9,444 bases of DNA. Source: a virus. Its lineage: Duplodnaviria; Heunggongvirae; Uroviricota; Caudoviricetes. A program made the position numbers and the translations under genes. The stretch covers positions 1 through 9,444 of IMG/VR virus record IMGVR_UViG_2648501797_000003; one strand, 5' to 3'. Below the pieces are notes generated by a model. That model ran no database searches, had not been told where the DNA came from, and saw only the letters and a list, made by a program, of their open reading frames with translations. Positions 1-9,444 of the stretch are shown one piece after another; positions within the stretch are counted from its first letter, which is position 1, and each line of letters begins with the position of its first letter.

Positions 1-783
1 CTAAATCATCGCAATGCCGTAATGCTGCCTGATGCGAAATGGTCGCCGGAAACTTAAAACAGAAGCGGAAGTCATCTGTGGTCTGCTCACGCCAGCGCAG
101 GACAACCTCGGGTTCTCAACCGCGCCGATAACCTGTTTCTCTTCTGCGCTTAACGCCACCCAGAATTCCTGATACTTAACAGTTCCAAGGCGTGCGGCAG
201 ACTCGCCTTTTGCGATCAGTTCCGGGCGGCGATCATCCGATTCATGCCCTACATGAACCTCTGTCGCACTCCCTTCAATGACACGTTCGGCTTCGTCCTG
301 ATCGAAGATGCCAGCAAACCCAAATGCGAGACGCGCACACTGGATCAGCGTCTTGTGACGAAGCATACGGGTAGGGTGGGACTGCCATGGCTGAGTGTTG
401 CGTTTGCACTCTCCCATGTACTCAGTAACGATGGTCGGGTGTGTGCGGTCTTTCCGGTATATCTTGCAGGTACACGCGCCTTCTTCCTTGTCGTAGGCAA
501 ACTCCATTCCATCAAACTGAGGATGTTCGTTGATGATTCGAGCCCAGCCGTCAACGCCGACTACAGGAACAATTCCACCTTTATCCGGGAATGCATAAAT
601 CTCTTTTGTCCACGGGTTCAGTCCGTACTGGTTGGCGACGATCAGCAGTGCCGTGAACTGCTCATCAGTGACATTCCCACCCTTAAATGCTGTATTTTTC
701 AGAGTGTTCATCAGGTCAGTTCCGGCATCCATGCCGAGGCGGGAGGCAAGCTTCCCGGCCATTGTAGAAAGTGCTGTGCTCAT
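1..783 (-). CDS. bet: Bet / Red-beta family single-strand annealing recombinase (260 aa)
   Basis: Translation from ATG at 783-781 (MSTALSTMAGKLASRLGMD...LLIVANQYGLNPWTKEIYAFPDK...VPVVGVDGW..RIINE..QFDGM...CTC.IYRKDR.HP...TE.M.EC.....PWQSHP.RMLRHK..IQCARLAFGFAGI.D.DEAER) is near-collinear with lambda Bet as I recall it. SD GAGGGG lies 6 nt upstream of this ATG. Stop TAG is at 3-1. The ORF-track start at 834 adds 17 residues with no homology and overlaps the upstream gene. Confidence 0.9.
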   Translation of the reverse strand: MSTALSTMAGKLASRLGMDAGTDLMNTLKNTAFKGGNVTDEQFTALLIVANQYGLNPWTKEIYAFPDKGGIVPVVGVDGWARIINEHPQFDGMEFAYDKEEGACTCKIYRKDRTHPTIVTEYMGECKRNTQPWQSHPTRMLRHKTLIQCARLAFGFAGIFDQDEAERVIEGSATEVHVGHESDDRRPELIAKGESAARLGTVKYQEFWVALSAEEKQVIGAVENPRLSCAGVSRPQMTSASVLSFRRPFRIRQHYGIAMI

Positions 784-799
784 AGAATTCCCCTCAAAG

Positions 800-1084
800 T
801 TAAAACGGGCAGCCGGTGCGGTGGTCCCAGTCATATTCCGCCTGGGCGTAAGCTACTGCCGAGATGAGATCGTTATATGCCTCGCCAGCTGCATCGCTGC
901 GGAGGCCTTCGTATGGGCTTTTGTCCATCGGCACAGAGAAGCGGAACAGGCCTGACGGCTCTTTCGGCAGGGCGTCGATAATTTCCTGCGCCCGATCGTC
1001 AATCCACTTTTGCTTCTCTTCGGTTAGCGACTGTTCAGCCCATTTCCTTTCTTCGATAGCGTCGTATGCGCGGTAGGCGTTCAT
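800..1084 (-). CDS. gam: Gam-like host-nuclease (RecBCD) inhibitor, 94 aa from ATG 1084 (GTG at 1090 also possible)
   Basis: N-terminus MNAYRAYDAIEERKWAEQ resembles lambda GamS MNAYYIQDRLEAQSWARHY; similar length (~95 aa), charged helical character, and position immediately upstream of bet as in lambda. Start sits 7 nt after the stop of the upstream gene with an SD-like GAGGUG spanning that stop. Homology is from memory. Confidence 0.6.
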   Translation of the reverse strand: MNAYRAYDAIEERKWAEQSLTEEKQKWIDDRAQEIIDALPKEPSGLFRFSVPMDKSPYEGLRSDAAGEAYNDLISAVAYAQAEYDWDHRTGCPF

Positions 1085-1091
1085 AAGCACC

Positions 1092-2063
1092 TCAGTAACT
1101 GATACCGGTATGGGGAATGCGGCCGTCTTTAACCGCTGTAAGCACCTCGATAGCCTGATCCCGAGTAAGGCTGGTATTGGCCAGAAGAGCTTTGACGATT
1201 TCAGTGCCTACAGCCTTGCGGTGCTTAACGTCGGCTTCGCGGCGAGCCTGCTCATCGGCTTTACGTTTCTCCTCAGCCAGGCGGGCCTGTTCGCGTTGCT
1301 CTGCCTCGCGGCGGATGCGATCGGCTTCTTCCTGAGCTTTGCGGCGCTCCGCTTCGATAGCGGCCTGCTTGTCAGCCTCAGCTTTCTTCTCGGCTGCAAT
1401 GCGATCTCGCTCTGCCTGCTCAGCTTGTGCTTTCAACACAGCTTCGCGATGCGCCGCTTCTTCACGTTCACGCGGTGCGCGCTGCTCAACTTCTCGGGCT
1501 GCTGCGGCGGCTGCCATTCGCTTAATTTCTTCTTCATGGGCAATGCGCTGGCGCTCAGCCTCAGCTGCTTTATCTGCCTGCTCTCGGTCGAAAGCGTCAT
1601 TCATCAGCATGGCCATTTCGTGGTCAGACTCAATCCGAGCTGCCAGCTGCCGATCGAACTCTTCATTCATGGCCAGTGCTTCGACGTGAAGGGCGTTCAT
1701 GGCTTCTTCGGCCTTAATGCGTTCCTGCTCCGCCTCCCATTCGGTCAACGGGCGACGCACTTCATCTTTCAGTGCATCGAGACGCTCACGGACAACGCGG
1801 CGGCTTTCATCAATCTGCTTTGGCAGCGCCTTCAGCTCAGCGACCAGGGCTTTACCTGCGTTGTCGATGTAGGTTTTAGAGCGCGCGACCTTGTGAGCCA
1901 TGGATGCGATAGCATCGCGGCCTTTTTTGGTGGTCACGTCCGGCACCAGACTGCGAGCCTCTTTTTCGATCGCTTCGATAAGCGGATCGAGTTGGTCGTT
2001 ATTGGTGAAAACCGCCATCGCGTTCTTTTTCTCGATGACGACTAAATCCATTATTTCGCTCAT
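1092..2063 (-). CDS. Hypothetical coiled-coil protein, 323 aa; structured N-terminal ~110 aa, then long Ala/Glu/Arg/Lys-rich low-complexity helical region
   Basis: Long ORF from ATG 2063-2061 with SD AGGGGA about 5 nt upstream; stop TGA at 1094-1092 directly abuts the gam-like start. Central region is repetitive (AEAERQRIA..., AAAAAARE..., KAQAEQAERDRIAAEKKAEADKQAAIEAERRKAQEEADRIRREAEQ). The antisense frames are open only because of this GC-rich repetitive coding. Family not recognised. Confidence 0.75.
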   Translation of the reverse strand: MSEIMDLVVIEKKNAMAVFTNNDQLDPLIEAIEKEARSLVPDVTTKKGRDAIASMAHKVARSKTYIDNAGKALVAELKALPKQIDESRRVVRERLDALKDEVRRPLTEWEAEQERIKAEEAMNALHVEALAMNEEFDRQLAARIESDHEMAMLMNDAFDREQADKAAEAERQRIAHEEEIKRMAAAAAAREVEQRAPREREEAAHREAVLKAQAEQAERDRIAAEKKAEADKQAAIEAERRKAQEEADRIRREAEQREQARLAEEKRKADEQARREADVKHRKAVGTEIVKALLANTSLTRDQAIEVLTAVKDGRIPHTGISY

Positions 2064-2312
2064 GGTTTCCCCTGAAATTTGGTTGTAAGAATCCCGGCAC
2101 CGTATTGGCTGCCTGATAGCTCAGTTAAATTCGTGCGCTGATATCCGGGTTTATATTGCCTGGGAGTCATTAATCAATCTGGCGTGGAGTGCGATTCGTG
2201 GCTAAATCCCCCGCCGAACGCAAAGCCGCGCAGGAGGTAAAGATCTGTTTGGCTGGAAGTGAGGGCGTGGTAATGTGTTTACCTATTCTTCATTTGCTTA
2301 GGTGGCGTGAAA
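2064..2312. promoter_or_regulatory. Divergent intergenic control region between the leftward recombination operon and the rightward small-ORF operon
   Basis: 249 bp non-coding between divergent gene starts (2063 minus, 2313 plus). Candidate leftward sigma70 promoter: -35 TTGATT (revcomp of 2172-2177), 16-nt spacer, -10 TATAAA (revcomp of 2150-2155). Short repeated motifs TTGSCTG (2105, 2156, 2249) and GGCGTG (2181, 2265, 2303). Promoter calls are by eye only. Confidence 0.35.
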
Positions 2313-2510
2313 ATGCTGTATACAGTGACGTTCAATGAGACAGAGCGGAAGGAAGATATTGAACTTAGCGCGGATGTCAGGGCGGGTGATTTGCTGTCAT
2401 TAACGCTCGATGGCGTGAAAGATGACTACACGGTGATGACAGTAGGCGGTCCTATCATTGGCAATACCTGTGTCCCATCAATAATCCGGGTAAAAAAAGC
2501 TCAGAAATAA
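2313..2510 (+). CDS. Hypothetical small acidic protein (65 aa from ATG 2313; ORF track starts at GTG 2307)
   Basis: ORF with SD AGGTGG (2300-2305) 7 nt upstream of ATG 2313; first gene of the rightward operon. No helix-turn-helix evident, so not obviously Cro-like. Confidence 0.5.
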   Translation: MLYTVTFNETERKEDIELSADVRAGDLLSLTLDGVKDDYTVMTVGGPIIGNTCVPSIIRVKKAQK

Positions 2511-2519
2511 TAATGTATA

Positions 2520-2546
2520 ATCCCCTCCACAGCAGAGGGGATTTTT
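2520..2546 (+). terminator. GC-rich hairpin with short U-tract (terminator-like) that sequesters the SD of the next gene
   Basis: 8-bp perfect stem ATCCCCTC / GAGGGGAT (2520-2527 with 2535-2542), 7-nt loop CACAGCA, then TTTT immediately followed by ATG 2547. The 3' arm contains the GAGGGG Shine-Dalgarno of the 2547 ORF. Confidence 0.45.
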
Positions 2547-2729
2547 ATGACAAACAAAAAAATGACACCTGCCGAAAAGCTCAAAGCTTCGCGGAAGCGG
2601 TATAAAAAAATCTGGCTTCAACTGGATATCGCTAACGCCAAGCGATTTGGCGAGAAAGAAGTGCTTTCCGTTGACACCTACAGATCGCCCTATGAAACGC
2701 GCAAGAAAAGAGGAAGGACAGCAGATTGA
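2547..2729 (+). CDS. Hypothetical small basic protein (60 aa), possibly nucleic-acid binding
   Basis: [42 protein letters not shown]...; Lys/Arg-rich; a beta-strand-then-helix pattern ([14 protein letters not shown]) is compatible with a ribbon-helix-helix fold, but this is a guess. Confidence 0.5.
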
Positions 2730-2989
2730 CAACATCATCCTGGAACATAGCAGCCAAATCGAAAGACGAGCAGGACAAAGTCAACGTTGACCTCGCCGCG
2801 TCCGGCGTCGCTTACAAAGAACGCCTGAACATGCCGGTTGTCGCCGAAGTGGTGGCCAGACAACAGCCTGAACACCTGCGGGACTACTTCATGGAGCGCG
2901 TCCGCTACTACCGCGAGCAGAGCATCCAGCTTCCCCGCGCATCCGATCCGCGCTATCTGGAAATGGCTGAGCAGAACGCCAAGAAATAG
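2726..2989 (+). CDS. Hypothetical protein (87 aa) with putative TTG start overlapping the upstream stop (TTGA)
   Basis: ORF in track; strong SD AGGAAGG (2711-2717) 8 nt upstream of TTG 2726; the first in-frame ATG (2831) has no SD. Confidence 0.45.
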
Positions 2990-3095
2990 CGATTTCCTCG
3001 CCTATGCTCATTTTGCTTTTATCCCCGGGAGGGGCGATAATTACTTAGTCAGTCTGGACAACTGACAACTTTACCCCGGCGCCAAGTGGGGACAC

Positions 3096-3563
3096 ATGGC
3101 GCAAACACTGCAATTTGAGAAAAGTTATCAAAACGTACTGATTCCCGCAGAGCCGGGAACCAGCGAATACCTGCAACTTATCCCCGTAGGGCAACTGCTT
3201 TGCGGTGAGTTCCGCAAGCCCAGGAATTACGCATTCCACAAGAAGTTCTTCAAACTTCTGACTCTCGGGTATCACTACTGGACGCCTTCCGGTGGTCTCA
3301 TTGAGCCCGCGGAGCGTACCCTCATATCCGGTTTTATCGACTTTCTCTCATCCGACCTCGATCAGCGCGCTGCACTCCAGAACGCCGCGGAGATGTATCT
3401 CTCCTCGGTCGGTATATCCCGTTCCCGCGATATGGCGCTGCTGAAACACTTCGAATCCTTCCGCGAGTGGGCAACCATTCAGGCTGGCTTTTATGACGAA
3501 TACCAGATGCCTGACGGCAGCCGTCGTCGTGTCGCAAAGTCGATCTCCTTTCTGGCTCGATGA
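3096..3563 (+). CDS. Hypothetical protein (155 aa), nin-region-like position
   Basis: ORF with ATG 3096 preceded by GTGGGGA. Sequence feels like a conserved enterobacterial prophage protein of unknown function (possibly a DUF-type family), but I cannot name it reliably. Confidence 0.6.
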   Translation: MAQTLQFEKSYQNVLIPAEPGTSEYLQLIPVGQLLCGEFRKPRNYAFHKKFFKLLTLGYHYWTPSGGLIEPAERTLISGFIDFLSSDLDQRAALQNAAEMYLSSVGISRSRDMALLKHFESFREWATIQAGFYDEYQMPDGSRRRVAKSISFLAR

Positions 3564-3650
3564 CCAGCAGGTTGACTACTACAGCGTGAAGAGAATGCCT
3601 GTCGTCAAAGGTGGGCGGCTTGAGCTAACCATTACCGAAATGGAGTCCGC

Positions 3651-3791
3651 ATGAGCCGTGACGTTATCGAACGCATCCGCGACCGCTGGCAAAAGCTTCG
3701 CCTCCTGCGTAGCCGCGGCACCGTGCTGGTCGACTACAAAATATTACGCAATTTCGTCCGTATCTATAAGCGCCTGGGAGAAGCAGCATGA
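3651..3791 (+). CDS. Hypothetical small Arg-rich protein (46 aa), below the ORF-track length cutoff
   Basis: ATG 3651 with SD GGAG (3642-3645) 5 nt upstream; translation MSRDVIERIRDRWQKLRLLRSRGTVLVDYKILRNFVRIYKRLGEAA; its stop TGA (3789-3791) overlaps ATG 3788 of the next gene (ATGA coupling). Confidence 0.35.
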   Translation: MSRDVIERIRDRWQKLRLLRSRGTVLVDYKILRNFVRIYKRLGEAA

Positions 3792-4477
3792 CAGCTCAAT
3801 ACTTGGAATTTGTTCGCCAGCAGCTGATAGTGGCCACCGCCGATCTGAGTGGTGCGACGAAAGGGCAACTGGTAGCTCTTGCAGAGAACGCGCAATTTAC
3901 CGCTACGGCGCGCAGCCGTGGCCGGAAGAAGGTGTATAGCGAGGTGAAGCAAAAAATGGTTAACCCGGATGGACCGCCGATGAGCGGCAGCCAGTCCCGC
4001 GCTAAGGGTTCCTCAATCGCTCTCGTTCTGCCCGTTGAATACTCGACAGCCAGCTGGCGTCGCGCCCTCCTGTCGCTGGAAGACCACCAGAAATCCTGGT
4101 TGCTGTGGAACTACAGCGACAATATCCGCTGGGAGCACCAGGAGACGATAACCCGCTGGGCATGGGAGCAATTCAGCGACAAGCTGGCCGGTGTGCGCAT
4201 TGCAAAGAAAACAGTCGATCGCCTCCGTCAACTTATCTGGCTGGCCGCACAGGACGTCAAAGCCGAGCTGGCAGGACGGGAGACGTATGAATACCAGTCG
4301 CTGGCGGAGCTGGTTGGTGTAGCAAAGTCCACATGGACAGAAACCTACCTCCCTCATTGGCTGGCGCTGCGCAGCAGTTTTGTGAAGCTTGATAGCGACG
4401 CTCTCATGGCGGTAACGCGATCACGTTCACAACAAAAGGCGTCAAATTTAGATGTAAGTCTTGCAAAACCGAACTGA
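3788..4477 (+). CDS. Hypothetical protein (229 aa); candidate late-gene regulator (Q-like by position only)
   Basis: ORF with SD GGGAG 7 nt upstream. It is the last early gene, immediately upstream of a promoter-terminator-tRNA arrangement like lambdoid Q-pR'-tR'. It has no cysteines, so it is not a lambda-Q-type zinc-finger protein. The functional call is inference. Confidence 0.55.
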   Translation: MTAQYLEFVRQQLIVATADLSGATKGQLVALAENAQFTATARSRGRKKVYSEVKQKMVNPDGPPMSGSQSRAKGSSIALVLPVEYSTASWRRALLSLEDHQKSWLLWNYSDNIRWEHQETITRWAWEQFSDKLAGVRIAKKTVDRLRQLIWLAAQDVKAELAGRETYEYQSLAELVGVAKSTWTETYLPHWLALRSSFVKLDSDALMAVTRSRSQQKASNLDVSLAKPN

Positions 4478-4489
4478 AAGGCATATATT
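4461..4489 (+). promoter_or_regulatory. Candidate sigma70 promoter (pR'-like late promoter)
   Basis: -35 TTGCAA (4461-4466), 17-nt spacer, -10 TATATT (4484-4489), overlapping the stop codon of the 229-aa gene; predicted start near 4496, about 50 nt upstream of the terminator hairpin. Confidence 0.35.
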
Positions 4490-4544
4490 TCATGTAAATC
4501 TGATATCGTCGCCATAGCTTCGATTGTCGACACATAAAGAATTC

Positions 4545-4578
4545 AAGCCCGAGGTTAACGCCTTGGGCTTTTTCATTT
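4545..4578 (+). terminator. Intrinsic terminator (tR'-like)
   Basis: 10-bp stem AAGCCCGAGG / CCTTGGGCTT (one G-U pair), 6-nt loop TTAACG, followed by TTTCATTT. Confidence 0.6.
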
Positions 4579-4580
4579 CA

Positions 4581-4655
4581 GGGTCAGAAGCACAGCGGTT
4601 GTGCGTTCGGCTGTTAACCGAATGGTAGAAGGTTCGAATCCTTCCTGTCCCGCCA
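4581..4655 (+). tRNA. tRNA-Asn (anticodon GUU)-like gene, 75 nt including encoded CCA
   Basis: Hand-folded cloverleaf: acceptor 4581-4587 with 4645-4651 (6 bp plus one T-T mismatch), D-stem GCAC/GTGC, anticodon stem TTCGG/CCGAA with loop CTGTTAA (anticodon GTT at 4613-4615), 5-nt variable loop, T-stem GAAGG/CCTTC with canonical T-loop TTCGAAT, discriminator G, CCA. Non-canonical A at position 8. Confidence 0.6.
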
Positions 4656-4661
4656 AATAAT

Positions 4662-4732
4662 GGCCTGACCTGATGACGGGCTCATAATCCAATCCATCAG
4701 GGGCGCTGCTGCAACAGCGTCACAGGCCGCCA
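4662..4732 (+). other. Degenerate tRNA-like remnant (possible decayed tRNA with CAU-type anticodon loop motif)
   Basis: GGCCTGA (4662-4668) pairs with ACAGGCC (4722-4728) and is followed by G-CCA. Inside are a 7-bp hairpin (4669-4675 with 4695-4701) whose loop contains CTCATAA, and a 5-bp hairpin CGCTG/CAGCG (4704-4719). No D-arm and no canonical T-loop. Confidence 0.25.
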
Positions 4733-4789
4733 GACCAAGCCTGGGTATTTTCGGTCATCACCGACATTGCTATTACCCTCATGCTTATT

Positions 4790-4818
4790 GCCTGCCTAAC
4801 CGCAGGCTTTTTTATTTT
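4790..4818 (+). terminator. Intrinsic terminator
   Basis: 6-bp stem GCCTGC / GCAGGC, 6-nt loop, followed by TTTTTTATTTT. Confidence 0.6.
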
Positions 4819-4920
4819 CAGGGTCGCGGGAATCACCCTCGACGCTTTGTTGGTAAATCAGCCCGACGGCCCTGACCTTCTCACACACAGCTTCCCGATC
4901 TTTCATCGGAGGCGGTAACT

Positions 4921-5340
4921 ATGGCTAAGCGTATGCAAGACAAAGAGAGCATTGCCGGGATGTCCTGGCTGGTTCTGCTGATCATTGCTGGTTGGGGCGG
5001 CCTTGTCCGATTCCTGATGGATGTAAAGCAGGGCAAAGCAAAATGGAGCTGGATAAATGCTTTTGCGCAGATTGTGGTTTCGGCTTTTACCGGGGTTATT
5101 GGTGGGCTCATCAGCATTGAAGGTGGCCTGAGTATTTACATGATACTGGCCACTGCCGGTGACCAGGTTAACAGCGAGCTATGGTGGGCGATTCAGAACG
5201 GTTATATGACGGTTAAAGCCGCAGGGGTTCGTGTCCGTGAAATAGAGACCGTCAGTGATGGTTATCAGTTTTTTGGCTTCGATATCGAAAATGACTATAT
5301 CGCTGGCTTCGACCGCGGGTCATGGGGAGAGAGATTTTAA
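4921..5340 (+). CDS. Holin-like small membrane protein (139 aa) with dual-start motif
   Basis: SD GGAGG (4908-4912) 8 nt upstream of ATG 4921. N-terminus M-A-K-R-M (Met1 and Met5 separated by Lys-Arg); hydrophobic helices around residues 11-33 and 43-79; charged C-terminal region. First gene after the late promoter/tRNA region, where lambdoid holins sit. Confidence 0.6.
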   Translation: MAKRMQDKESIAGMSWLVLLIIAGWGGLVRFLMDVKQGKAKWSWINAFAQIVVSAFTGVIGGLISIEGGLSIYMILATAGDQVNSELWWAIQNGYMTVKAAGVRVREIETVSDGYQFFGFDIENDYIAGFDRGSWGERF

Positions 5341-6221
5341 TGGCGACTAACGATTTTAAACCCTTCGCTACTGGTAGCGGGGCAAACGTATTATCACAAG
5401 CTGATTATGACGCACTGTCGGCCAGAACAACTGGCTTTTTAAGTGGCAAAGCGTCTTCGGCCCAGGTCAACAAAGCTTTAAGGCAGGCATCAACTATTGC
5501 GGCGGTTGTGGCGCAGTTTATTTCTGATAACAGCGGCGATGACACCCTTGATAACGGTAATTTACCTACCTTACTGGCTAGTCTCGAAAGCGCCCTCCTC
5601 AAGTCCTCCCCTGGGCGGTTACAGAATATCGTTAGCTTTACCGCAAATGGGACCTACACCCCATCGCCAGGAACCAAACATGTAAAAGTTATTGTTACTG
5701 GCGGTGGTGGCGGTGGTGGTGGTTGTCAGGGAACTTCAGGATCTGAATCAGTTTCAGGTGGCGGCGGCGGTGCTGGTGGTACGGCCATTGGTTATTTTGC
5801 TGTAACTGAATCCAGCTATGCAGTCACTGTAGGTGCTGGTGGTTCTGCTGGCGTTGGTGCTGTCCAGGGTGGAACAGGCGGAACCTCAATCATTAACGGC
5901 ATTAGCGGATTGGGCGGAGATGGTGGTCAGAAATCAGGGATCACTACGCTGGCTGGTGGGAAAGGCGGTATTTCTATTGGTGGCTCGGTTAACCTTCCCG
6001 GAGGTTACGGCACTGATGGGCAAAATGGCTCCCTGATTATCCCCGGCAATGGCGGCTCGTCATATTGGGGCGGCGGTGGTCGTGGGGGCGCACGCGGGGG
6101 CGTGGCAGGGGATTGTTATGGTGCCGGTGGTGGTGGCGCATATGATGCTGCCATGTCTGGCAACTCCTACAATGGCGGACAGGGGAAAGCAGGGATTGTA
6201 TATATTGAGGAATATTCTTAA
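5340..6221 (+). CDS. Glycine-rich protein (293 aa from ATG 5340), tail-fibre/adhesin-like
   Basis: ATG 5340 overlaps the upstream stop (TAATG) with GGGGAGAGAG upstream; the ORF-track start at 5322 lies inside the upstream gene. N-terminal ~110 aa ordinary composition (MATNDFKPFATGSGANVLSQADYDAL...), then polyglycine tracts (G8, G5, GGxGG) separated by short variable segments. Family not identified. Confidence 0.7.
   Translation: MATNDFKPFATGSGANVLSQADYDALSARTTGFLSGKASSAQVNKALRQASTIAAVVAQFISDNSGDDTLDNGNLPTLLASLESALLKSSPGRLQNIVSFTANGTYTPSPGTKHVKVIVTGGGGGGGGCQGTSGSESVSGGGGGAGGTAIGYFAVTESSYAVTVGAGGSAGVGAVQGGTGGTSIINGISGLGGDGGQKSGITTLAGGKGGISIGGSVNLPGGYGTDGQNGSLIIPGNGGSSYWGGGGRGGARGGVAGDCYGAGGGGAYDAAMSGNSYNGGQGKAGIVYIEEYS
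5700..5723 (+). repeat. In-frame trinucleotide simple-sequence repeat (GGY)8 encoding Gly8
   Basis: GGC GGT GGT GGC GGT GGT GGT GGT read directly from the sequence, within the Gly-rich CDS. Confidence 0.8.
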
Positions 6222-6391
6222 TGGTAAGCAAGTATGCAGTCCTGAAAGAATGCGTGGTAGAAAACATTATTGTTGCTGATGATAATTACTCTCCTGATGA
6301 TTTCGAAGTCGTAAAATATAGCGACGAAACATTTTGCCAGCCAGGCATGTTGTACAATAAAGAGGATGGTTTATTTTATGATGATAAATAA
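6221..6391 (+). CDS. Hypothetical small protein (56 aa), translationally coupled to the Gly-rich gene
   Basis: ATG 6221 overlaps stop TAA 6219-6221 (TAATG); translation MVSKYAVLKECVVENIIVADDNYSPDDFEVVKYSDETFCQPGMLYNKEDGLFYDDK. Below the ORF-track cutoff. Could be a short chaperone or a fragment of a tail-fibre assembly protein; unproven. Confidence 0.35.
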   Translation: MVSKYAVLKECVVENIIVADDNYSPDDFEVVKYSDETFCQPGMLYNKEDGLFYDDK

Positions 6392-6438
6392 TCATCAAGA
6401 ATAAATAACATTATCTACATATCTACACATTACCAATC

Positions 6439-6463
6439 AACCGGCTTATGCCGGTTTTTTATT
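6439..6463 (+). terminator. Strong intrinsic terminator directly abutting the start of the 694-aa gene
   Basis: 7-bp stem AACCGGC / GCCGGTT, 4-nt loop TTAT, followed by TTTTTTATT; ATG of the next gene at 6473. Confidence 0.7.
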
Positions 6464-6472
6464 GGGGCGACC

Positions 6473-8557
6473 ATGAGTGAATACGATACCGGCAATCCTG
6501 TGCCGTCTGCATCAATACCTGATGCATGGGATAATATGCAGTCTATTGACAGGTTCGCTAATAGTAGTGATGAAACTATTACCACGCGTACAGGTAAGCA
6601 GTTAGACACTCTGCATGGCATCAATGTAAAGTCTGATAACCAACTTAATGAACAACAAGATACCTTTGAATTATCTCAATCCGAAAGGGAATCCTCTTTC
6701 GAAGAAAAATCAAATGAATTTGAATCGCGCTTCTCCTCTCAGTTATCGGCGCAGGAATCAACATTTTCAGAATCTCAATCTGATAAAGAAAACCGCTTTC
6801 AGCAGTTCCTGAATACTTCAGGATACGTGTTCCTTGGCGATTATCAGGACGGCCCATTCCAGTTTAGTGCCCGTAACCAGTACATCCGTTACGGCAATGA
6901 GTATTACCGCCTGAATGCTGCTACTGACGTCGGCTTTACGACCACCGGAACCGATGCGACCAGCTTTGCGAACGACGTTACTCACTTCGTTCTGATGGAT
7001 GGTGATACGCTTCGCCAAGACCTGGGTTCAGGCGAAGGAGCAATGAAGGTTTACCGGAACGCCTCACCTCTGGCCAGAATCATTCGCTCCTCGATTTTTG
7101 AATACCTTACTGAAGCTGATCAGCAGGCGTTGCTCACAATTCCTGGCGTTAATGTTATCGCTGACTACGCGTTAAAAAAAGCTATAGCTGATGGAGTGAT
7201 GGTACTGGATATTCCGTGGAATGTCGGTGCGTTAAATTTCGGGCTTGACCCCGCAATGCTTCCATTAGGTTTTCAATTTATAGGGTGGGGTTGCCGACGC
7301 CCATATACAATTGATGACGATAACAGTTTTCTGAATTGCGGAGTCGTCATCCGCGTAGCTGCTGGTGCAAGTTTTCCATTTTATTCAACAGGCAGGCATG
7401 TATTCCGGGATATTGTTTTTGATGGCCGAGATAAAACAACGTACCTTTTTTATTCGCCAAATACTGCAACCCAGTTCAACGGCACCCGACTTGAGGGGTG
7501 TGGATTTTATCGGTTTGCGATCGGGATTGGCTGGGCTTCAGGAGGAACAGCCAGGTACATCGGAACAATGAAAGCATATTTCTGCTCAATATCCGGAAAC
7601 GGGGATGGAGTCAGGAATTTAATAGACTCCATGATGTTTGGTTGCACAATCAATGCTAATGATCGAGGAGTGGCCCTTACCGGTGGGGCAAACAATAACT
7701 TTTTTGGAGGATGCCGGAACGAATGGAACACCGGCGATAACTGGTATGCGTACCAGTCGGTGGAGAACCAGATTTTCGGCGAACTGTGCGACAGGGCCGG
7801 AAGGGGAGGTGTGGTCGCCGGGGCGAAATCCTCATGGATTTTAAACGGCGTTAACGTCCGGCGCAGTGGTGCTAATCAACCCGTGGGTAATGACTATTCC
7901 GCAAACTTTATTATTATTGATGACGGTAAAATTGAACTCTCAGGGGTAAGAACTGGTGTCGGTGCGAATGACAGCGGTGACGGAGGGACAATCTCGCCAT
8001 CCTACAACGTATCAGCTCTTGGCTCTGGCGGGGGGACCTTGCAGGTTTCCGGAAGTGACATGACTGGTTTTGTTACTTCAGCAATTAACCAGAAGGCGAC
8101 CACGTTAAATAAGTCGATAACCGGCAACCTTGGTATGGACGACGATGTAAATATTGGTATGACCCAGGTTGTTAAAGGCAGGCGAATTATTGGTTCACAG
8201 TCATCAGGTACGTTAGCAGGCTCTGCGGGCGCAACGTTATCGCTGACCAAGACCAACATATTCCAGAATTATTTCGATACATATATTACCCGTTCAATCC
8301 TAATTGAATGTCGAATTGGTAGCCAGTCATTTGGTGACGATATTAAAATTCCCGTCAGATTCAGAAGGGAGAATCTTTATTATCTGGATATCCTGACCTC
8401 GGGAATTGTTGCCAGCTCTGCACGCATTGGGCTTTCAGGGACTGGCGTAACGGTATCATTGTCCATTAACAGCTCAACCGGTCTGGTTACTGTTCAGTTG
8501 ACAAATGTTGATGGTCTGGAAAGAACCGTTAATGTATCAATGTTGCCCTCAATGTAG
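6473..8557 (+). CDS. Tail-fibre / tailspike-like protein (694 aa); probable receptor-binding protein with beta-helix-like body
   Basis: Long ORF. N-terminal acidic Ser/Glu/Phe repeats with roughly 11-residue spacing of Phe (TFELSQSERESSFEEKSNEFESRFSSQLSAQESTFSESQSDKENRF), typical of fibre coiled-coils; central and C-terminal Gly/Asn/Ser/Thr-rich stretches resembling beta-helix tailspike proteins. No specific family confirmed. Confidence 0.7.
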   Translation: MSEYDTGNPVPSASIPDAWDNMQSIDRFANSSDETITTRTGKQLDTLHGINVKSDNQLNEQQDTFELSQSERESSFEEKSNEFESRFSSQLSAQESTFSESQSDKENRFQQFLNTSGYVFLGDYQDGPFQFSARNQYIRYGNEYYRLNAATDVGFTTTGTDATSFANDVTHFVLMDGDTLRQDLGSGEGAMKVYRNASPLARIIRSSIFEYLTEADQQALLTIPGVNVIADYALKKAIADGVMVLDIPWNVGALNFGLDPAMLPLGFQFIGWGCRRPYTIDDDNSFLNCGVVIRVAAGASFPFYSTGRHVFRDIVFDGRDKTTYLFYSPNTATQFNGTRLEGCGFYRFAIGIGWASGGTARYIGTMKAYFCSISGNGDGVRNLIDSMMFGCTINANDRGVALTGGANNNFFGGCRNEWNTGDNWYAYQSVENQIFGELCDRAGRGGVVAGAKSSWILNGVNVRRSGANQPVGNDYSANFIIIDDGKIELSGVRTGVGANDSGDGGTISPSYNVSALGSGGGTLQVSGSDMTGFVTSAINQKATTLNKSITGNLGMDDDVNIGMTQVVKGRRIIGSQSSGTLAGSAGATLSLTKTNIFQNYFDTYITRSILIECRIGSQSFGDDIKIPVRFRRENLYYLDILTSGIVASSARIGLSGTGVTVSLSINSSTGLVTVQLTNVDGLERTVNVSMLPSM

Positions 8558-8565
8558 GAGTGAAA

Positions 8566-8745
8566 ATGGAAGACGAAACAGAACTGACCGAACCGCCATT
8601 TGAAACCTGGTTCAGAGACGTGGTTGAACTGGTTAAAAATGGCGGACATTCAATGGATATTGTTGCCTATAAGGGGGAATGGGTTGATTATTTTTCGGAA
8701 GGATTAACACCAGAAGATGCGTTTATAAAAAGAATGGCTCTTTAA
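8566..8745 (+). CDS. Hypothetical small acidic protein (59 aa from ATG 8566)
   Basis: SD AGGAG (8556-8560) overlaps the stop of the 694-aa gene, 5 nt upstream of ATG 8566; very acidic (MEDETELTEPPFETWFRDVVELV...). Confidence 0.5.
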   Translation: MEDETELTEPPFETWFRDVVELVKNGGHSMDIVAYKGEWVDYFSEGLTPEDAFIKRMAL

Positions 8746-8858
8746 ATAACCGACCGAAAATAAATGTCAGGGAGTAACGTATTGATAATTTTCGACAAAA
8801 CGGCAGAGCATAGTGAAAACCGCCTGTGGATGATGGCCAACATGGGGAGGATTCTGTA

Positions 8859-9176
8859 ATGGGCTTTCCATCACCCGCGACGGATTACACGGAACAGCGA
8901 TTAACGGTTAACTCGATCTGCAATGTCGGTCCAAATACGCGCCTCTTCGAGCAATCTGGCGGTTACGTTGTGCTGGATGTCTCCCTGAAACCAAAGCAGG
9001 CCAGTCAGGTTCTGATCCAGCACGGCGGCGGGACGGAGCTTGCCACGCTGAGAGGAAGGTCGCTGATTACCGAAGATGGTGAAGCGATCGAGGGCGAGGC
9101 CCTGGACGATGTTACTGTCATCGGTGTAGTGACGTTTACTATCTGCGATGTGCGCCAGGACAATGCGGTTGTTTAG
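8859..9176 (+). CDS. UmuD'-like protein lacking the N-terminal pro-peptide (HumD-like; 105 aa)
   Basis: SD GGAGG (8846-8850) 8 nt upstream of ATG 8859. N-terminus MGFPSPATDYTEQRLTVNSIC matches the UmuD segment GFPSPAADYVEQRIDLNQLL that begins at the Cys24-Gly25 self-cleavage site (13 of 20 identical by my recall). C-terminal TVIGVVTFTI resembles UmuD DVFGVVIHVV. No GDSM serine motif seen and no umuC-like ORF downstream. Confidence 0.65.
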   Translation: MGFPSPATDYTEQRLTVNSICNVGPNTRLFEQSGGYVVLDVSLKPKQASQVLIQHGGGTELATLRGRSLITEDGEAIEGEALDDVTVIGVVTFTICDVRQDNAVV

Positions 9177-9339
9177 TTGCAGTCAATTGATGGAAGATTT
9201 CGCGTGGCAGGCGTCTTGGGGCATGGGTGGGGCATGAGAAATCAGTGAATTTCGCCAAACATTGCAAACAACGTATGTTGGATGCTATCTCCAGCCATTA
9301 AAAATGGCGCTCCTGGACGATATTTGTCGATTTTTAAAT

Positions 9340-9444
9340 TTACCGCGTCACGCAGTTAAAGTGGCGGGCATACTCTTCAAGGCTGGTGATCCCCAACCGC
9401 ACCCATTTAGGATGCGACCATTGCGGTAGACCGATGTAAATCAT
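9340..9444 (-). pseudogene. 5' fragment (34 codons plus stop) of a DUF72 / YecE-like host gene, apparently interrupted
   Basis: Minus-strand translation from ATG at 9444-9442: MIYIGLPQWSHPKWVRLGITSLEEYARHFNCV then TR-stop. This matches my recollection of the E. coli YecE (DUF72) N-terminus, which should continue EGNTT...; divergence begins near 9348. Identification from memory. Confidence 0.45.

Follow-up and report, generated by a model that had tools for sequence, protein, structure and literature searches.

The element described here is a segment of 71 nucleotides (nt; positions 4662–4732, + strand) within a 9,444-nt stretch of DNA from a virus of the Caudoviricetes (IMG/VR record IMGVR_UViG_2648501797_000003, positions 1 to 9,444; this whole stretch is referred to as the window, and positions given without a contig name are those of the window). 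It is a member of an apparently undescribed family of structured phage RNAs, in which one helix of a three-way junction carries, above a conserved AC/AAUC internal loop, a hairpin that by its sequence reproduces the initiator-tRNA anticodon stem-loop almost exactly. The element belongs to a class of this family (class B) that has tRNA-like ends, i.e., an acceptor-like stem and an encoded NCCA tail. On balance, we consider it probable that the element is a functional tRNA mimic that is matured as a small RNA and presents an initiator anticodon arm. The searchable literature did not contain a description of the element, and its motif strings were found there only as the initiator tRNA itself.

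Structure of the element

The minimum free energy fold of the element is a tight three-way junction and not a cloverleaf, with an energy of –32.6 kcal/mol vs. –21.8 ± 3.1 kcal/mol for shuffled sequences (z = –3.47; none of 200 shuffles equalled it). The outer helix (P1) is acceptor-like and pairs GGCCUG (4662–4667) with CAGGCC (4723–4728), and the two junction residues A4668 and A4722 remain unpaired and are conserved in the family alignment. The first inner helix (P2a) pairs CCUGAUG (4669–4675) with CAUCAGG (4695–4701) and encloses a 19-nt core (ACGGGCUCAUAAUCCAAUC, 4676–4694), which consists of the AC/AAUC internal loop, a stem of 3 base pairs (bp) formed by GGG and UCC (P2b), and the 7-nt loop CUCAUAA (4681–4687) with a CAU 'anticodon' at 4683–4685. 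The second inner helix (P3, 4702–4721) is a 7-bp hairpin (GGCGCUG at 4702–4708 with CAGCGUC at 4715–4721) that has a CUGCAA loop and occupies the position of a T arm without showing the T-loop consensus. P1 is followed by the encoded G-CCA tail (4729–4732).

An earlier note on this DNA, made from the letters alone, had described an acceptor-like terminal pairing that ends in G-CCA, an internal CTCATAA and the lack of both a D arm and a canonical T loop, directly after a tRNA-Asn gene. All of these features were recovered: the terminal pairing amounts to 6 bp and is followed by an A.A mismatch, CTCATAA lies at 4681–4687, neither a D arm nor the T-loop motif GTTCRANYC is present in 4662–4732, and the element begins after a 6-nt spacer (AATAAT, 4656–4661, + strand; GATAAT in most relatives), of the length class that separates true tRNAs, from the phage tRNA-Asn(GUU) that precedes it (4581–4655, + strand; called by ARAGORN and scored at 61.4 bits by the Rfam tRNA model).

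The folded molecule is the RNA of the + strand, as indicated by its G.U pairs and by a covariance model built for the family (referred to as R1), which scored the element at 74.6 bits on the + strand vs. 8.9 bits on the – strand (with the window being among the seed sequences of R1). No open reading frame (ORF) of at least 40 amino acids overlaps the element on either strand. The CTCATAA heptamer on its own occurs at chance level (once in the window vs. 1.04 expected); given the conservation and covariation seen in the relatives described below, we nevertheless regard a chance origin of the element as untenable.

Relation to tRNAs

When region 4560–4860 was scanned with the 4227 models of Rfam 15 (cmscan, E ≤ 10), nothing was matched over 4662–4732 and the only match to the tRNA family was tRNA-Asn, which places the element below the gathering threshold of the tRNA model (RF00005, 29 bits); the copy of the element in phage SfV was likewise without a match at E ≤ 10. 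ARAGORN gave no usable call on the element with its default, -ps80, -ps60, -mt or -mtmam settings (the latter including armless tRNAs), the combination of -mt and -ps80 returning only two spurious overlapping calls, neither of which used the CAU loop as anticodon. Because Rfam gave no match and ARAGORN no call, the element is not a tRNA gene.

The individual parts of the element were also compared with those of specific tRNAs. The acceptor-like stem has six Watson-Crick pairs, an A.A at the seventh position and then G-CCA, and the loop CUCAUAA has U33 and CAU on a stem of only three pairs, which is followed by a 2×4 internal loop. A C1.A72 mismatch is a formylation determinant of the initiator tRNA, whereas the 5′ end of the element (G4662-C4728) corresponds to G1-C72. 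TilS, in turn, is directed by CAU, an Ile2-type anticodon stem and the acceptor pairs C4-G69 and C5-G68; the element has CAU and C4-G69, but carries U-A at 5-68 and an anticodon stem of GGG/UCC instead of GCGA/UCGC. The element is neither an initiator tRNA (G1-C72) nor a tRNA-Ile2 nor a member of the tRNA family.

The likeness to the initiator is confined to the anticodon arm. The window shares an 11-nt word (CGGGCTCATAA) with metZ of Escherichia coli K-12, and the consensus of the family (SfV type) is identical over 14 nt (CGGGCUCAUAACCC) to positions 28–41 of E. coli tRNA-fMet, i.e., the whole anticodon loop, C28 and three consecutive G-C pairs. Such a run of G-C pairs (29-41, 30-40 and 31-39) is the hallmark of initiator tRNAs. 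The match of the window is limited to 11 nt because its third stem pair is G.U (UCC), its pairs being G-C, G-C and G.U. By a rough count, chance matches to some E. coli tRNA would number about 0.05 for an 11-mer and about 0.0007 for a 14-mer, and the initiator match moreover occupies the equivalent place in the structure (a 7-nt loop on three G-C pairs). Among the K-12 tRNA loci tested, R1 matched the anticodon arm of metZ, metW and metV only.

A second likeness concerns tRNA-Ile2, which the earlier note had proposed for comparison. Of 39 tRNAs compared, ileX and the ileZ of phage 933W come closest to the element in its 9-mer CTCATAATC, its GGCC start and its 3′ half (alignment score of 20, the next best being metT with 16 and the median 10); over the 3′ 35 nt, the identity to these tRNAs is about 63% (hand count on one alignment). 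While the proposed comparison thus yielded the best-scoring tRNAs, their anticodon stem differs from that of the element and R1 had no match to ileX or 933W ileZ, nor to metT. Taken together, the covariance-model searches did not place the element in any Rfam family, whereas similarity to tRNAs beyond chance was present in the form of the initiator word, the ileX/ileZ likeness and the position in a tRNA slot. From these comparisons we conclude that the family is likely tRNA-derived or tRNA-mimicking, with class B having kept or acquired tRNA ends.

The same features can be read as those of a working non-canonical tRNA, which would be charged either by MetRS, via its CAU, or by IleRS once TilS has introduced lysidine, and which would have a role in translation or serve as a charged decoy (e.g., for toxins that acetylate Met-tRNA-fMet). 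MetRS identity rests mainly on CAU, and U33-CAU is invariant; class B, and no other class, strictly retains NCCA; the acceptor begins with G1-C72, G2-C71, C3-G70 and C4-G69 as in ileX/ileZ; and, by the known geometry of tRNA limbs, the stacked P1 and P3 (13–14 pairs) and P2 (7 bp, loop and 3 bp) approximate the two limbs of a tRNA. However, there is no D arm, T-loop consensus or elbow, the armless mode of ARAGORN finds nothing, and the junction linkers (1, 0–1 and 1 nt) are unlike those of armless mitochondrial tRNAs. To our knowledge, no armless tRNA works on bacterial ribosomes. Family members outside tRNA arrays moreover lack CCA, and a true tRNA(CAU) occurs together with the element in one contig. 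We therefore hold a working tRNA to be highly unlikely; if class-B RNAs were nevertheless charged, they would be an armless tRNA-like substrate without precedent in bacteria.

An origin as a tRNA fragment at a phage attachment site was also considered, since the attP sites of phages contain the 3′ portions of tRNA genes. This candidate was rejected, as the identity to tRNA-fMet extends symmetrically to both sides of the anticodon, within a hairpin that covaries and far away from int.

Units in phage tRNA arrays

Class-B elements occupy the last slot of a phage tRNA array, after the terminator proximal to the late promoter pR′ and before the lysis genes. In the Klebsiella ST101-KPC2phi6.1 and Mulock phages, the element follows the last tRNA of an Asn-Phe-Thr-Arg array, and its 6-nt spacer resembles the 5–6-nt spacers that separate the true tRNAs of the array. 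In a sample that made no use of sequence patterns of the element (80 viral contigs picked via the late antiterminator protein Q alone, of which 70 were usable), the class-B unit was found in 23–24 of the 70 contigs (BLAST; R1), and wherever ARAGORN called an upstream tRNA in these contigs, the unit started at the end of the last tRNA + 7. The arrays that precede the unit are of several types (i.e., Asn; Asn-Arg; Asn-Thr-Arg; Asn-Phe-Thr-Arg; Thr-Arg; and Met(CAU)-Arg). The same trailer (ATCCCTCTACCTTGGGACC...) can be preceded by the CCA of the element or by that of a tRNA-Gly, suggesting that the unit is a module equivalent to a tRNA.

Throughout all fetched DNA, 27 distinct class-B units were found, and all 27 end in NCCA (22 in GCCA and 5 in ACCA), with the bases beyond CCA differing between contigs. 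This comparison shows that the NCCA of class B is under selection. All 18 distinct P3 segments form hairpins of 6–8 bp and display compensatory changes, the pair types differing on both sides. U33-CAU was invariant in the pattern-free samples.

These units bear directly on the reading, offered in the earlier note, that the segment is a decayed relic of a second phage tRNA. Taken as a pseudogene, it would be a neutral remnant (of the ileZ/Ile2 or Met type) without a function, having lost its D arm and T loop. In favour of this reading, no tRNA detector or covariance model recognises the element; its 3′ half, GGCC start and CTCATAATC are closest to ileX/ileZ (20 vs. a median of 10), it sits in a tRNA slot of leader arrays that do decay by deletion, and the window prophage is itself defective (see below). 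The relatives contradict decay, however: NCCA and all three helices are kept in 27 of 27 distinct copies, the changes in P3 (a hairpin in 18 of 18 segments) are compensatory, and in two contigs (L332 and L352) the upstream tRNA has been cut to a 3′ stub next to an intact element, so that the unit has outlasted the tRNA. In addition, a true tRNA(CAU) and the element co-occur in one contig, which argues that the element is not simply the decayed allele of that tRNA, and strongly covarying copies of the junction and core are also present away from tRNA arrays, in unrelated regions of phages and in a second phylum. A neutral relic is thus hardly credible, and the evidence favours what the earlier note had offered as its other reading, i.e., a tRNA-derived structured RNA.

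True tRNA(CAU) genes were seen at the head of the array in contigs L373, L382 and L383 (at about 2195–2470); ARAGORN calls them Met, although they are possibly of the Ile2 type.

A wider family outside tRNA arrays

BLAST searches with the element alone matched phages SfV, SfII, SfIV, mEp460 and cdtI, Stx2a- and Stx2c-converting phages, and Pantoea phage PA-1. The loci of SfV, mEp460 and the Stx2c type have the same junction and the core AC-GGG-CUCAUAA-YCC-AAUC, with different closing helices and no CCA. When a pattern of the 19-nt core was used for a scan, matches were obtained in at least 120 viral contigs of IMG/VR and in 102 species genomes of GTDB. About a third of these species genomes (about 35 of the 102) are enterobacterial prophages with the full junction, and most of the other species-genome matches have no flanking hairpin or junction and are probably chance occurrences, probably within coding sequence; the ORFs at non-enteric matches were inspected for L177, L168, L222 and L028. 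A total of 82 distinct candidates were parsed, a few of which (e.g., L133, L218 and L044) were without a convincing junction. As a separate observation, the 19-nt pattern lies in repeated sequence in L140, L155, L167, L182, L186 and L200 (from one Candidatus Oxydemutatoraceae chromosome) and in L194; on this chromosome it occurs at least six times, in a repeat of at least about 100 nt that is probably a mobile element or a multicopy gene, with no obvious junction, and the pattern there is probably unrelated.

The members follow a common plan of P1 – A – P2a (7 bp) – AC GGG YUCAURA YCC AAYC – P2a′ – P3 – A – P1′, to every part of which the element of the window conforms. Three classes could be distinguished. 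Class A (the SfV type) has a covarying P1 of 20 bp, a P3 of 14–40 nt and no CCA, and is located downstream of cI and upstream of yfdP/yfdQ-like genes (in SfV, mEp460, cdtI and Stx2c phages), where it directly follows the terminator of an STnc100-like RNA (scored at 39.5 bits in SfV vs. a gathering score of 47). Class B comprises the units in tRNA arrays, and the window fits it with its 6-bp GGCCUG/CAGGCC P1, its NCCA and its start 6 nt past the last tRNA of the late leader. Class C (from prophages of Raoultella and others) is found in the interval from Q to the holin gene, where there are no tRNAs, and has no CCA; its P1 (GGCCC/GGGCC) and tail (GCCCAUUCC) are visibly homologous to those of class B. 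In Pantoea phage PA-1, the element is situated after a terminator, between a gene annotated as 'class II holin', which we read as putatively Q-like, and the lysis genes. A further member was found in an Acidobacteriaceae prophage, with an endolysin gene nearby; it has the identical 19-nt core on a 7-bp hairpin within a 10-bp outer stem, and no P3.

When 49 distinct family members were aligned, 95.4% of cells were paired (a percentage inflated by how members were selected, as weighed below) and 9 of 16 pairs had changed on both sides. None of 500 shuffles reached the observed values, and controls in which the pairing was slid were 30–50% paired. Family-wide, P1 is 99.6% paired with double changes in 4 of its 6 pairs, P2a has 5 of 7 pairs changed on both sides, and P3 tolerates large insertions.

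This architecture could also be that of an aptamer for a ligand or protein, i.e., a riboswitch-like junction in which the resemblance to the initiator arm is convergent or merely ancestral. The tight three-way junction, the invariant AC/AAUC loop and the conserved junction A residues are typical of aptamers, the flanks of the core have no tRNA counterpart, and P3 accepts large insertions. Against an aptamer stand the 14-nt identity to tRNA-fMet in the same structural register, the tRNA ends of class B, and the lack of an expression platform overlapping a terminator or ribosome-binding site. We judge this explanation to be very improbable.

Two further candidates were rejected. The string CUGAUGA, at a three-way junction, recalls the core of a hammerhead ribozyme, but it forms the covarying 5′ strand of P2a, classes A and C do not have it, and ribozyme models gave no match. 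A coding function was discarded as well, given the absence of an ORF of at least 40 amino acids, the G.U pairs that favour a + strand RNA, and the fact that annotated coding sequences (CDSs) on the minus strand over homologues are not conserved as ORFs. Such CDSs were seen in mEp460 (L005, 1402–1545, – strand), where a small 'hypothetical protein' (mEp460_036) is annotated opposite the element, and in ST101-KPC2phi6.1 (L002, 668–856, – strand), where a CDS covers the 3′ part of the element and its trailer; both are probably spurious. In E. coli K-12, no copy of the element was found upstream of yfdP in CPS-53.

Proposed function

Family members are placed downstream of promoter-proximal terminators in antiterminated operons. 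If the element is a functional tRNA mimic, the class-B unit would be transcribed only on Q-antiterminated late transcripts and would be excised in the manner of a tRNA, by RNase P cleavage at G4662 and 3′ trimming to the CCA that ends at 4732, and a stable RNA of about 71 nt would accumulate. For class A, release by RNase III via the 20-bp P1 is plausible. The RNA of about 70 nt would then act in trans by mimicry, offering an initiator anticodon arm to a factor that reads this arm. Our leading guess, which is a tentative one, is that the RNA would serve as decoy or competitor for a defence that targets tRNAs, such as a VapC-type anticodon nuclease directed at the initiator tRNA; alternative candidates as readers of the arm are MetRS/TilS and the 30S P site. 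Enteric VapC toxins cut initiator tRNA in the anticodon stem-loop (PMC7180214), phage tRNAs have been argued to counter tRNA-targeting defences (PMC10264068), and phages generally avoid encoding tRNA-fMet (PMC10264068). That temperate phages of several phyla carry an RNA decoy which copies the initiator anticodon arm, against a host attacker or reader of the initiator tRNA, is a broader proposal that we regard as doubtful.

Base pairing with a messenger was also examined as a mode of action, and an antisense interaction of the loop or core with the start region GGAUUGGGUUAUGAGCCCGU was rejected, as the starts of the holin gene and yfdP match over only 3–4 nt (by eye). The presence of the same core in the acidobacterial prophage likewise suggests a universal partner rather than a specific mRNA.

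The placement of the family would equally suit a cis element of antiterminated early-left and late mRNAs, i.e., a processing or punctuation site, or a put-like RNA acting on RNA polymerase. A cut by RNase P (class B) or RNase III (class A) would in that case separate the leader from the mRNA, or set its stability or translation. In each context, the element comes shortly after a promoter-proximal terminator and ahead of the genes with which a long operon begins (class A after the STnc100-like terminator, PA-1 and class C after the Q-lysis terminator, and class B after tR′ and the tRNAs), and a second terminator and a long hairpin are located 3′ of the element of the window. A helix of 20 bp is moreover the size of an RNase III substrate, and the covarying P1 of class A has this length. 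However, a processing site needs neither a 14-nt copy of the initiator arm nor an invariant U33-CAU, and the class-B unit, which a trailer and terminator of its own separate from the lysis genes, behaves as a module with tRNA boundaries. With respect to a put-like role, BLAST with the element did not retrieve HK022-type phages, HK022 being matched only by the tRNA-Asn part of a longer query. We consider a purely cis-acting element unlikely, and processing and action in trans can coexist.

Several points weigh against a functional mimic of the initiator arm. Most of the 49 aligned members had been retrieved by a pattern that fixes the core, and all had passed filters of at least 5 of 7 pairs in P2a and at least 5 of 6 in P1, so that the conservation of the core is partly circular and the paired percentage inflated; the unbiased part of the family evidence consists of the changes on both sides of pairs and of the Q-sampled set. 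In class B, P1 and P2 are nearly invariant (with one double change, from G-C to A-U, in P2a), and since these helices hardly vary, class B alone provides conservation and not covariation for P1 and P2. The class-B loop varies at positions 32, 37 and 38 (CUCAUAA, UUCAUAC, UUCAUAG and UUCAUGA), and position 39 varies as well, which weakens the version with a VapC decoy and favours recognition of U33-CAU itself. As classes A and C are without CCA, aminoacylation or another tail-dependent role cannot be what all members have in common. Nothing in tRNA-fMet corresponds to the AC/AAUC internal loop, which is conserved as far afield as Acidobacteria and is explained by none of the readings considered here. 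RNase P cleavage, stability, action in trans and the nature of the target are all points that we infer. Finally, in the defective window prophage the element may be silent or stand outside a productive late programme, and because of this defect the functional conclusions rest on intact relatives.

If a decoy role holds, it would be the first RNA-based countermeasure to initiator-tRNA-directed toxicity, and it would explain why tRNA-fMet genes are rare in phages. The acceptor and CCA ends would then serve to recruit the host tRNA-processing machinery in lambdoid phages of Klebsiella and E. coli, and a role as decoy or competitor would tie the leaders of temperate phages to tRNA-targeting immunity or to the control of translation initiation. 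tRNA mimics and phage tRNAs are already known kinds of RNA, and the present family is common yet unannotated, or masked by spurious small ORFs, its carriers including well-known phages (SfV, mEp460, cdtI and Stx2c-converting phages) and Klebsiella prophages of epidemic clones.

Genomic context in the window

The leader region of the window begins with a gene for a Q-type late antiterminator (3788–4477, + strand; PHROG 304, anti-termination protein Q-like, E-value of 6.7e-95), an assignment with which the RefSeq annotation of an identical E. coli ST361 prophage concurs. Overlapping its 3′ end, a consensus scan found a promoter-like site (4461–4489, + strand; TTGCAA-17-TATATT), which by analogy with the lambdoid pR′ is a candidate late promoter just upstream of an isrJ-like RNA. 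The latter (4493–4571, + strand) ends in an intrinsic terminator (stem at 4545–4570, terminator scan) and is a full-length match to the isrJ family (RF01393; 57.1 bits vs. a gathering score of 37); by analogy with the 6S RNA of phage lambda, it is probably the terminated pR′-tR′ transcript. Its position directly 3′ of the Q gene and the promoter-like site, with a strong terminator at its end, more generally suggests that the isrJ-family 'Hfq-binding sRNAs' are the terminated pR′-tR′ transcripts (i.e., the equivalent of 6S RNA) of this type of Q and its qut site.

After the tRNA-Asn and the element, the 85-nt trailer (4733–4817, + strand) contains a small hairpin (4751–4764, predicted by folding), a U-rich stretch and a second intrinsic terminator (4790–4807 with a T run, terminator scan). 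This trailer is kept in Klebsiella phages; in Rfam it gave only sub-threshold matches driven by the terminator (RyhB and rseX), and it possibly resembles a small RNA of the Hfq type derived from a 3′ trailer. It is followed by a long hairpin (4818–4876, + strand, predicted by folding) of 13 bp (CAGGGUCGCGGG...CCCGACGGCCCUG), located just upstream of the ribosome-binding site of the holin gene, and the stretch recurs in conserved form in many Klebsiella phages, with or without tRNAs. Region 4733–4920 as a whole has a fold z-score of –4.2.

A 17-nt direct repeat (TTTTTYATTTCAGGGTC) occurs at 4569–4585 and 4809–4825, i.e., after each of the two terminators and 240 nt apart. The two copies flank the tRNA-Asn, the element and the trailer, the first entering the 5′ end of tRNA-Asn and the second the 4818–4876 hairpin, suggesting that this cassette was inserted or exchanged by recombination at the repeat.

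Other segments were observed in the corresponding leaders of related phages. Between the isrJ-like terminator and the first tRNA, Klebsiella phages have an extra segment of about 100 nt with a long hairpin (CAGGGCTCTTGGG...GCGCAAGAGCCCTG; L002, ~235–300; L003, ~648–730; L321, L325 and L332, ~2290–2375), which is absent from the window. In Klebsiella phages without the cassette of tRNAs and element, a segment GUGGUGAAU...CACCGGGAGGCACCCGGCACCAC fills the late leader after the isrJ-like terminator (L323, L326, L328 and L335, ~2290–2560; L004, 1268–1483; L006, ~1560–1700). Both SfV-type phages and Pantoea PA-1 have this segment directly beside the three-way-junction RNA, and its SfV copy, the one that was scanned against Rfam, gave a sub-threshold match to STnc100. 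Such leaders are hot spots at which RNA cassettes are interchangeable.

The first late gene of the window is the 5′ part of a holin gene (4921–5160, + strand; PHROG 785, holin), which comparison with intact prophages shows to be truncated by a deletion. Positions 3549–5160 are 99.9–100% identical to prophages in E. coli chromosomes of the ST361 type, and the match to the intact prophages of this type stops at about 5160, inside the holin gene. Beyond this point follows a DUF2612/tail-fibre-like gene, which in genomes of the WCHEC035148 type is located about 13.1 kb further on. The window prophage has thus lost about 13 kb relative to otherwise identical prophages, including the endolysin, terminase and head genes, and is defective as a result. 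The ORF at 4921–5340 (139 amino acids) is a fusion with the holin N-terminus and is followed by an ORF at 5322–6221. The same deletion junction is present in four complete E. coli genomes.

Comparison with known systems

Canonical phage tRNAs (RF00005; e.g., the ileZ-argN-argO genes of 933W) share with the element the array slot in the Q leader, the 6-nt spacer, the acceptor-like stem with NCCA, the 7-nt loop with U33 and CAU, and the overall length (71 nt). The element differs from them in having three helices instead of four and an arm composed of 7 bp, an internal loop and 3 bp. Asn, Leu and Thr tRNAs of phages L and Sf6 are likewise located at the 5′ end of a lambdoid late operon (PMC8022706). 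With respect to E. coli tRNA-fMet (metZ, metW, metV and metY), pairs 27-43 and 28-42 are replaced in the element by the AC/AAUC internal loop, and outside the anticodon arm the element is unrelated. With tRNA-Ile2 (ileX and 933W ileZ) it shares CTCATAATC, the acceptor start GGCC and the end GGCC-N-CCA, whereas the T loop of that tRNA is TTCAAAT vs. CTGCAA on a 7-bp stem in the element, which has no D arm.

Armless mitochondrial tRNAs resemble the element in that the D arm is missing while acceptor stem, anticodon loop and a third hairpin are retained; they have a replacement loop of 5–8 nt and a variable loop, in contrast to the linkers of 1, 0–1 and 1 nt in the element. Armless tRNAs also need specialised translation factors. 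Among RNAs that are not tRNAs, the species 1 and 2 RNAs of T4 are stable RNAs of unknown function within a phage tRNA cluster, and the C4 RNA of P1/P7 and mascRNA are tRNA-like RNAs processed by RNase P. The element is like these in being a small structured RNA located among tRNA genes, presumably released by tRNA-processing enzymes, but has no kinship with them in sequence or in Rfam, and they contain no copy of an initiator anticodon arm.

The isrJ (RF01393) and STnc100/PasD (RF02076) RNAs are neighbours in the leader hot spots and are unrelated to the element in sequence and structure. As prophage small RNAs they end in terminators and act by base pairing (bioRxiv 10.64898/2026.05.13.724894). 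A stretch containing GUGGUGAAU, which lies downstream of the element in PA-1 and also in the late leaders of element-free phages, resembles the 5′ part of STnc100 (by eye). A parallel in principle is the thrS operator, in which a hairpin likewise copies a specific anticodon arm to be read by a factor. That operator binds ThrRS, overlaps the ribosome-binding site and regulates in cis, whereas the element presents its arm on a three-way junction, with no start site adjacent to it and, in class B, with the ends of a tRNA.

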